A DNA stretch of 41,222 bases from a virus (lineage: Duplodnaviria > Heunggongvirae > Uroviricota > Caudoviricetes). Location: the IMG/VR virus record IMGVR_UViG_2588253749_000003, positions 1 through 41,222 of that record; one strand, given 5' to 3'. Below are positions 16,424 through 17,821 of the stretch, piece by piece. Made by a program: the position numbers and the translations under genes. The notes beneath the pieces are model-generated. The model did no database searches. It saw only the letters and a list, made by a program, of their open reading frames with translations, and was not told where the DNA came from. Positions within the stretch are counted from its first letter, which is position 1; the number at the start of each line of letters is the position of its first letter.

Positions 16424-16621
16424 ATGCTAAAACAGCAGGATATGACCGAAACCGCCAGAGTGGTGTTTAATGAATTAAGCGTCACCGAACCGGCGACCGT
16501 CGGGGAAATTGCGCAGAATACTTACCTTTCACGCGAACGCTGCCAGTTAATACTGACTCAGCTTGTTATGGCGGGTCTGGCAGATTATCAGTTCGGTTGT
16601 TACAGACGCCTTCCTCAGTGA
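16424..16621 (+). CDS. Small helix-turn-helix/winged-helix-like protein (hypothetical)
   Basis: 65 aa from internal ATG; upstream of methyltransferase; weak SD. Confidence 0.35.
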   Translation: MLKQQDMTETARVVFNELSVTEPATVGEIAQNTYLSRERCQLILTQLVMAGLADYQFGCYRRLPQ

Positions 16622-16771
16622 AGGTTTTTTAATTTGTGGTAATGGGCGGCTGGTGGGTGTTAGCGGCACCTGCCAGCCATCTGCTCATGCGTTGGGGTCA
16701 CAAGCAAACCTCAGGCCCATCTGCTTTGCGCAAAAGCGGTATGAGCCTATCAGAGAAGTGCTTATTGATCT

Positions 16772-17821
16772 ATGGCCAATACTGTAAAAATATCCAGTTG
16801 TGAGTTAATCAACGCTGATTGCCTGGAATTTATCCAGACCTTACCGGAAAATTCTGTCGATCTGATAGTCACAGACCCGCCATACTTTAAAGTGAAGCCC
16901 GAGGGCTGGGATAACCAGTGGGAGGGCGACGATGATTACCTGAAATGGCTGGACCAGTGTCTGGCGCAGTTCTGGCGGGTACTGAAGCCTACCGGAAGTC
17001 TTTACCTGTTCTGTGGTCATCGCCTGGCATCTGACACCGAAATCATGATGCGTGAGCGCTTTAATGTGCTGAACCACATTATCTGGGCGAAGCCGTCCGG
17101 ACGCTGGAACGGGTGCAATAAGGAAAGTCTGCGGGCGTATTTTCCGGCAACAGAGCGCATTCTGTTTGCAGAACATTATCAGGGACCGTATCGCCCGAAA
17201 GATGATGGCTATGTGGCACAGGGGCGCGAGCTAAAACAGCACGTCATGGCCCCGCTGATTTCTTACTTTCGTGATGCGCGTAAATCACTGGGAATAACGT
17301 CAAAACAGATAGCGGAAGCCACCGGAAAGAAAAACATGGCTTCGCACTGGTTTGGTACCAGTCAGTGGCAGTTACCGAACGAGGGTGATTACAACAAATT
17401 GCAGGCGTTGTTTGCGCGTGTTGCGGCAGAAAAACATCAGCGCGGGGAACTGGAAAAGCCACACCACCAGCTGGTCAGCACATACAGTGAGCTGAACCGG
17501 CAGTATACGGAACTGCTGAGTGAATATAAAAATTTGCGGCGGTATTTCGGTGTGACGGCGCAGGTTCCGTACACCGATGTCTGGACGCATAAACCGGTGC
17601 AGTACTATCCAGGGAAACATCCGTGCGAAAAACCGGCAGAAATGCTGCAGCAGATAATCAACGCGAGCAGTCGTCCGGGAGACCTGGTTGCAGATTTTTT
17701 TATGGGTTCAGGTTCAACGGTAAAAGCGGCGATGGCACTGGGGCGTTGTGCGATTGGTGTTGAGCTGGAGACAGGACGTTTTGAACAGACAGTCAGGGAA
17801 GTTCAGGATTTAATCGTTTGA
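16772..17821 (+). CDS. DNA methyltransferase, beta-class amino-MTase (N6-adenine or N4-cytosine), orphan
   Basis: Motif IV IVTDPPYF near N-terminus and motif I FFMGSGST near C-terminus; no adjacent restriction endonuclease. Confidence 0.8.
   Translation: MANTVKISSCELINADCLEFIQTLPENSVDLIVTDPPYFKVKPEGWDNQWEGDDDYLKWLDQCLAQFWRVLKPTGSLYLFCGHRLASDTEIMMRERFNVLNHIIWAKPSGRWNGCNKESLRAYFPATERILFAEHYQGPYRPKDDGYVAQGRELKQHVMAPLISYFRDARKSLGITSKQIAEATGKKNMASHWFGTSQWQLPNEGDYNKLQALFARVAAEKHQRGELEKPHHQLVSTYSELNRQYTELLSEYKNLRRYFGVTAQVPYTDVWTHKPVQYYPGKHPCEKPAEMLQQIINASSRPGDLVADFFMGSGSTVKAAMALGRCAIGVELETGRFEQTVREVQDLIV

Follow-up and report, generated by a model that had tools for sequence, protein, structure and literature searches.

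The window analyzed here is a 41,222-nucleotide (nt) stretch of DNA, positions 1–41,222 of the virus record IMGVR_UViG_2588253749_000003 (Caudoviricetes), and the locus in question is a two-gene cassette at 16424–17821. The first gene (16424–16621) encodes a winged-helix protein of 65 amino acids (aa), the second (16772–17821) a 349-aa DNA methylase, predicted to be a β-class N6-adenine methyltransferase of the M.EcoGII family. Between them begins the conserved leader RNA of the methylase mRNA (16638–16783), of which ~130 nt (16638–16771) precede the methylase ATG. These features, as well as the promoter, short RNA, terminators and tRNA genes described below, lie on the plus strand. The methylase itself is ordinary; what is new here is the conserved structured leader together with its frequent winged-helix companion.

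The methylase and its family

In the methylase, motif IV (DPPYF, from residue 35) precedes motif I (FFMGSGST, from residue 309), which is the β-class order. Pfam family PF01555 (N6_N4_Mtase) matches the protein with 154.2 bits (cut-off 26.7, E 6.5e-45) along profile positions 1–219 of 221. The top PADLOC model is MTase_II (E 3.7e-159), and the nearest solved structures are those of β-class methyltransferases, e.g. M.RsrI, CcrM and M.MboIIA. An earlier note, made from the letters of this DNA, had read the 349-aa open reading frame (ORF) as β-class from its motif order and had proposed a Pfam comparison to separate N6-adenine from N4-cytosine methylation. The motif positions and the whole-domain match confirm the class, while the choice of adenine over cytosine would follow from the identity to M.EcoGII.

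The strain E. coli O104:H4 C227-11 has M.EcoGII, a 349-aa β-class enzyme encoded in a prophage, along with M.EcoGI. Adenine is a substrate of M.EcoGII whatever the sequence around it, in DNA and, more weakly, in RNA (Murray et al. 2018, PMC5778455). M.EcoGII is silent in its lysogen, slows growth under constitutive expression, belongs to “a very large family” in E. coli prophages and has a close relative in phage 1720a-02 (PMC5778455). The enzyme of the window is identical to M.EcoGII at 316 of 350 positions (~90%) over the full length, including the central recognition region; both proteins have 349 aa, the only gaps in the alignment fall at machine-reading errors of the reference, and residue 179 is Gln, as in the M.EcoGII clade. 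By its sequence the window enzyme belongs to the M.EcoGII family and is a new allele of this well-described family. Of the loci analyzed, those nearest to the M.EcoGII reference are ~97% identical to it, and the two that were checked (L006 and L008) have the same small gene and leader.

The reconstructed ancestors of the M.EcoGII clade remain largely non-specific in the SUPREM study (PMC11551740). Together with the ~90% identity this suggests N6-adenine (not N4-cytosine) chemistry and the absence of sequence specificity for the window enzyme. With such a predicted lack of specificity a cognate nuclease is not expected, and no restriction-endonuclease-like gene, as a type II restriction-modification (R-M) system would have, is found among the ORFs from 12.3 to 21.1 kilobases (kb), in agreement with the earlier note.

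An orphan methylase might instead be sequence-specific and act as an epigenetic regulator in the lysogen, in the manner of Dam or CcrM. The gene is indeed an orphan widespread in E. coli, and its differences from M.EcoGII cluster in the recognition region. However, the non-specific M.EcoGII, to which its product is ~90% identical, is silent in the lysogen (PMC5778455), a strong terminator precedes the gene in what is proposed below to be a late operon, and the nearest site-specific relative, M.PflMI, is only 27% identical to M.EcoGII (PMC11551740). Such a regulatory role is very improbable.

Structured leader of the methylase mRNA

At the nucleotide level neither coding region is as conserved as the ~150 nt between the small ORF and the methylase gene, which diverge by 2–4%. 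A coding sequence or leader peptide was considered and rejected: one-base insertions and deletions separate the genera, all three frames contain early stops and no ORF is conserved. An upstream ORF ending at an in-frame TGA just before the ATG, as for re-initiation, was also looked for and none was found. An nhmmer profile recovers the leader at full length in 43 of 80 species-level loci, among them those of Proteus and Morganella, and in each case it ends at the ATG of the methylase.

Independent minimum-energy folds of divergent leaders give the same two-hairpin architecture. The structure described here is the consensus of such independent single-sequence folds, and covariation was scored on a MAFFT alignment of the 43 sequences. 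Hairpin 1 is predicted to consist of helices P0 (16642–47/16683–88) and P1 (16648–60/16665–78), and hairpin 2 of helices P2 (16695–16706/16759–71), P3 (16713–20/16741–48) and P4 (16722–26/16733–37). The 3' strand of P2 (16759–16771) is made up of the 13 bases immediately 5' of the ATG (16772), and no Shine-Dalgarno sequence is present before this ATG.

The structure comprises 45 pairs with 92.3% of cells paired over the 43 sequences. Double-sided changes occur at 13 of the 45 pairs, as compared with 5.3 ± 1.6 in shuffles (0 of 500 reach 13) and 4–9 in slid controls; the covariation score is 0.119 versus 0.094 in the shuffles and 0.026–0.059 in the slid controls. The leader of the window folds with a minimum free energy of −63.3 kcal/mol (z = −3.59). 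A covariance model of the leader has exactly one match in the window (120.9 bits), and in 85 of the 89 earlier loci it finds one plus-strand copy, always at the same place. Photorhabdus and Xenorhabdus have a shorter leader in which hairpin 1 is kept; the stem sequences vary by species yet stay complementary. A scan with a DNA pattern, blind to the methylase, returned 79 instances of the leader, and the methylase directly follows in 76 of them; the other 3 are accompanied by methylase remnants or a displaced start. The conserved two-hairpin leader RNA is exclusively linked to this methylase family. No match at E ≤ 1 was obtained within 16622–16771 with the 4,227 covariance models of Rfam, and within the M.EcoGII literature searched (PMC5778455, PMC7544214, PMC11551740) no description of the leader RNA or of its winged-helix companion was found.

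Two other foldings deserve mention. RNAalifold, applied to the 43 sequences, gives a different, partial fold (TGGGC/GCCCA) with invariant pairs and no covariation, and it was not adopted. In the second, the 3' strand of P0 might pair with P2's 5' strand in an alternative helix, by which the start region would be freed; this pairing is weakly supported and limited to a few lineages.

The conserved 130-nt element could also work as DNA, for example if the winged-helix protein used it as operator or promoter. P1 forms an inverted repeat of the kind expected for the operator of a dimeric helix-turn-helix (HTH) protein, and an HTH gene adjoins it. However, many G-U pairs are kept on the plus strand, for example at columns 8–51 (GU, 33 sequences), 25–31 (UG, 40 sequences) and 19–38 (UG, 17 sequences); in DNA they would be mismatches, which favors RNA over an operator. 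Furthermore, three other helices are formed over a long range, two of them with compensatory changes, the element is intact where the HTH gene is absent, and a promoter scan of the plus strand at 16622–16771 gave no promoter-like site. Function as DNA is improbable.

The winged-helix gene

The small ORF had been noticed earlier as HTH-like, and it proved to be a real gene with the limits first given to it (16424–16621). Across 81 related loci it is represented by 38 DNA haplotypes with 33 variable sites, 31 of which are third codon positions, and one amino-acid change; this count is biased, since the loci were taken as the best 80 by protein identity. With its variation at third positions, the ORF can be taken for a real gene that is under strong purifying selection. 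Across loci whose methylases are 87–100% identical, the small protein keeps 100% identity.

The protein belongs to PHROG 331 (phrog_331, E 1.4e-37) and is called “TrmB family regulator” in some sources; its match to TrmB is weak and below the cut-off (E 0.0026). AlphaFold predicts a helix-helix-helix-beta-beta winged helix with a predicted local distance difference test score that averages 90.3. Foldseek matches the model to N-terminal domains of IclR proteins and of O-methyltransferases, to SelB domains bound to RNA of the selenocysteine insertion sequence (SECIS), and to Z-alpha. No functional lead was obtained from this search, since the winged-helix matches are only generic (best E 8e-4).

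Homologs of 63–68 aa, down to ~37% identity and with the core RCQL(I/L)LTQ, are encoded just 5' of the methylase in Klebsiella, Salmonella, Buttiauxella, Enterobacter, Rosenbergiella, Xenorhabdus, Photorhabdus, Proteus and Morganella. The gene is located directly 5' of the methylase in 56 of 75 usable species-level loci and in 68 of 76 viral loci, while it is missing next to an intact leader and methylase in 8 of the 76 viral loci. Loci of this kind indicate that the small protein is not obligatory for the leader or the methylase. In several species-level loci (L093, L095–L100, L106, L107, L115 and L145; at ~2100–2850 in each) unrelated genes replace the winged-helix gene 5' of an intact leader and methylase, for example those of a 220–231-aa protein, a 79-aa Cys-rich protein and a 299-aa protein. 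From these replacements, the site just 5' of the leader appears to act also as a cargo slot.

The small protein might be a functional partner of the methylase, either a switch that binds hairpin 1 of the leader (Com-like) or a retargeting subunit (PNB-2-like); in the latter variant the non-specific DNA methylation by the isolated enzyme would not be its native activity. The fixed gene order with a spacing of ~150 nt from E. coli to Proteus and Xenorhabdus speaks for a partnership, as does the conservation of the small protein and of the leader, which in each case exceeds that of the methylase. RNA-hairpin-binding SelB domains are among the many that the fold resembles, M.EcoGII is able to methylate RNA (PMC5778455), and as a precedent the methylase of a Shiga toxin (Stx) phage is redirected to 16S rRNA by a small winged-helix subunit (PMC10810198). 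The possible alternative helix that frees the start region would fit a switch, but it is backed by one or two lineages. Besides, the gene is absent with leader and methylase intact in 13 of 75 species-level loci as well as in the viral loci mentioned, the protein resembles neither PNB-2 nor Com-type zinc fingers in sequence, and the Foldseek matches are generic. A partnership of this kind is rather doubtful. The winged-helix protein is a frequent but dispensable companion, and most likely it would modulate either translation of the methylase or the enzyme itself.

A hairpin that holds the stop codon of the small ORF in its loop and is followed by a T run was found by the terminator scan at 16608–16625. 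It may be a weak terminator or a third hairpin of the leader, placed before the other two. Klebsiella, Buttiauxella, Salmonella and Xenorhabdus have a stem of different sequence at this position; the hairpin was noted in loci L082, L085, L087 and L129–L155, with the pairing kept between genera.

Candidate late promoter, short RNA and terminator

A candidate late promoter pR' is located at 16189–16217, with a −35 element TTGATT (16189–16194), a 17-nt spacer and a −10 element TTCAAT (16212–16217). It is proposed from its position and conservation: the same block follows directly after the Q gene in the related loci L015, L021 and L026. A short transcript of ~75 nt (16226–16299), resembling IsrK and StxS, would run from it to a candidate terminator tR' at 16277–16300. 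The Rfam family isrK (RF01394) matches 16226–16299 at full length but below the threshold (21.6 bits against the gathering score of 50, E 0.07). The putative tR' is a strong intrinsic terminator, AACCCGC-TTTAT-GCGGGTT with a following T run; the segment 16270–16302 folds with −18.2 kcal/mol, and the hairpin with its T run is found ~135 nt 5' of the small ORF in every upstream haplotype seen.

Stx phages and Gifsy-1 are known to make short RNAs that start at pR' and are halted at tR' (PMC7547250). By analogy the small ORF and the methylase gene would be the first genes after tR' in a Q-dependent late operon. Such a position would account for the reported silence of enzymes of this kind in lysogens.

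Neighborhood and distribution of the cassette

From 12.3 kb onward the gene order is as follows: a DUF968/HNH protein, RusA, the antiterminator Q (13771–14328), an AbiLi-like ATPase, its weak AbiLii-like partner, the small ORF and the methylase. On the 3' side, up to 21.1 kb, these are followed by three tRNA genes, TerB, two holins, an M15 endolysin and the terminase-side HNH gene. The lysis genes of the window occupy 18958–19995, so that the methylase is placed between Q and the holin and endolysin genes of a lambdoid prophage. The 2-kb region with the cassette has 89–91% nucleotide identity to phiP27, phage 1720a-02 (89%) and many Stx2 phages, where the annotations are “DNA methylase”, a hypothetical or “TrmB family” protein and ileZ/argN/argO. 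The cassette of small gene and methylase is present in 1,914 of 5,426 complete E. coli genomes (at least 80% coverage), with up to 7 copies per genome. In prophages of Klebsiella, Buttiauxella and Salmonella it is always found between Q and the holins, despite three different Q families. The methylase cassette belongs to the standard make-up of the late operon and forms its first, widely shared module.

Decayed cassettes also occur. Locus L012 (4215–4333) has a partial leader and a deleted methylase, and in L032, L176 and L182 the methylase is truncated; it follows from these copies that the cassette is sometimes lost with the small gene staying behind.

The tRNA cluster (17871–18120) was identified by ARAGORN, the Rfam tRNA model and the ileZ/argN/argO annotation of homologous Stx2 phages. 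It consists of a CAU “Met” tRNA that corresponds to ileZ, Arg-UCG and Arg-UCU; the first of them is Met (CAU) according to ARAGORN and Ile according to RefSeq. Downstream of the cluster the window contains no stx genes and has instead a terminator-like hairpin (18134–18153; terminator scan, −14.6 kcal/mol for the surrounding region) and a TerB-family gene. The latter (18296–18721) encodes a 141-aa protein with a TerB domain (Pfam E 1.3e-07; PHROG 632 “tellurite resistance”, category moron). It fills the slot of stxAB in Stx phages and is found in only some related loci.

The AbiL-like module

An AT-rich AbiL-like module (14330–16180, GC content ~0.36), with its two genes at 14328–16141, lies between the Q stop codon and the candidate pR'. 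Its first gene encodes a 426-aa AAA ATPase that matches AbiLi of PADLOC (E 7.6e-26), with weaker matches to mad3 and AriA. The true start of this ATPase is probably downstream of 14328, near MIFTRLRF..., and a promoter-like site at 14358–14386 may drive it. The partner of 177 aa has a weak PADLOC match to AbiLii (E 0.0015) and belongs to PHROG 10204 of unknown function.

The earlier note had read the whole 14.3–18.8 kb segment as a single cargo island, and this is contradicted by the data. The module is present in 6 of the 5,426 complete E. coli genomes, as compared with 1,914 for the cassette, and was not found in phage records. Its GC content of ~0.36 differs from 0.51 of the methylase. In relatives with Q directly upstream (L015, L021 and L026) the alignment to the window starts only at 16181, and this breakpoint indicates that the module was inserted separately between Q and pR'. 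The AbiL-like module, rare and inserted on its own between Q and the candidate late promoter, sits beside the common late-operon module. Unrelated genes occupy the same Q-side position elsewhere (a GIY-YIG protein in phiP27, unknown genes in Buttiauxella and Salmonella prophages). The gap between Q and pR' can be regarded as a separate insertion site for rare defense-like cargo.

The same data bear on the idea that the methylase is the modification half of a defense island shared with the AbiL-like ATPase and its partner. Adjacency and the two PADLOC matches are in its favor. It is contradicted by the distribution and by the GC contents, by the promoter-like block and terminator that stand between the module and the methylase, and by the unrelated genes that take the place of the module in other phages. 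It can hardly be upheld.

Proposed role and control of the methylase

We regard the window methylase as the ortholog of M.EcoGII in a lambdoid prophage: a late-expressed, SAM-dependent enzyme of low or no sequence specificity, which serves anti-restriction and is subject to a second layer of control at its leader. The probability of this reading is estimated as roughly 0.75. In the lysogen, tR' would stop transcription before the methylase and the enzyme would not be made. Upon induction, RNA polymerase modified by Q would read through tR', so that the methylase would be made late. It could then modify adenines throughout the replicating phage DNA, and the progeny would resist many adenine-sensitive restriction systems in the next host. 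Anti-restriction had already been suggested for the window enzyme in the earlier note; it is the reading given in the literature for the closest characterized relative, M.EcoGII (PMC5778455), and by analogy with that enzyme it is the probable role here.

The second layer of control is proposed because uncontrolled expression of the methylase is harmful. Hairpin 2 of the leader would occlude the start site: as there is no Shine-Dalgarno sequence and P2 pairs the bases 5' of the ATG, translation should be low or conditional. The occlusion might be relieved by the winged-helix protein acting like Com of phage Mu, by RNase III processing of the long irregular hairpins, or by a ligand. Alternatively, no relief is needed and the leader would act as constitutive damping. 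It is conceivable, although we consider it unlikely, that leader and small protein form a dedicated control cassette of the M.EcoGII family, with a leader that hides the start and a winged-helix protein that acts on the RNA (Com-like) or on the enzyme (PNB-2-like). If so, the “non-specific” activity of the isolated M.EcoGII-type enzyme would be restrained or redirected in the phage's own context.

Several observations weigh against the proposed role and control. Of the ~30 substitutions with respect to M.EcoGII, ~20 are located in residues 145–250, i.e. in the linker and target-recognition region, and with this clustering the specificity of the methylase could differ from that of M.EcoGII. The M.EcoGII reference was machine-read from the PDF of the SUPREM supplement and has obvious reading errors, so that the true identity is probably slightly above 316/350. 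The candidate pR' has a weak −10 element, and the promoter scan did not call this site. In the leader, the double-sided changes are mostly contributed by a few lineages (the window's own type, Proteus, Morganella and Rosenbergiella), and the structure was scored on the very sequences that had served to derive it. Finally, the 13 species-level loci that keep the leader and the methylase without the winged-helix gene make up ~17% of the 75.

The methylase by itself adds little, being one more allele of a very common prophage enzyme, and its value is in the context. M.EcoGII is sold as a reagent and is widely used for chromatin and RNA footprinting. In the searchable literature nothing was found on how phages control this cell-harming enzyme. 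A leader RNA that extends from E. coli to Proteus and has no Rfam model is a concrete candidate for a new cis-regulatory RNA, and in view of the co-conserved winged-helix gene it may be asked whether the methylase is truly unrestricted in its native activity.

Comparison with known systems

The closest analogy in terms of control is the com-mom operon of phage Mu, which encodes a host-toxic DNA-modification enzyme that is expressed late. The gene of the small nucleic-acid-binding protein Com (~62 aa) is located immediately 5' of mom, and Mom is not a methyltransferase. In the mom leader a hairpin comes first and then a stem by which the start region is sequestered, and Com is a zinc-finger activator. 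The window similarly has the gene of a small (65-aa) protein 5' of the modification gene, and, by prediction and covariation only, a leader hairpin together with a start-sequestering stem. In contrast to Com, the window protein is modeled as a winged helix; it has just two Cys and lacks a zinc-finger pattern. The two systems are unrelated in sequence, the window small protein is absent from ~17% of loci, and its binding to RNA is hypothetical.

The second system is the M.EcoPA8orf6770P-PNB-2 holoenzyme of phiPA8, in which PNB-2 changes the choice of substrate (Gong et al. 2023, PMC10810198). The likeness consists in a methylase of an Stx-type phage and a small winged-helix protein encoded just 5' of it, the two being co-expressed in phiPA8. 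However, the phiPA8 enzyme belongs to MT-A70 (DPPW) and is encoded near the left end of the phage genome, while the window enzyme belongs to PF01555 (DPPY) and is assigned to the late operon. The small protein was also considered as a homolog of PNB-2 and this was rejected (BLASTP E 0.14), as PNB-2 has 143 aa against 65 aa and there is no significant similarity.

M.EcoGII itself shares with the window enzyme the length of 349 aa, the DPPY ... FxGxG order and the location in a prophage. The two differ by ~30 substitutions, two thirds of them in residues 145–250, and for the window allele the activity is a prediction. The StxS and IsrK RNAs (PMC7547250) resemble the unit upstream of the cassette in that ~75 nt extend from a promoter-like block to a strong terminator between Q and the late genes. 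They differ from it in that the score of the window unit (21.6 bits) is far under the gathering score of 50 and that the AbiL-like module parts Q from this unit.

Controller (C) proteins of type II R-M systems are likewise small HTH proteins encoded 5' of a methyltransferase. In contrast to these systems, the window has no nuclease, and its small protein has no Xre-type HTH match and adopts a predicted winged-helix fold. The conserved repeat 3' of the small gene behaves as RNA, not as a C-box.

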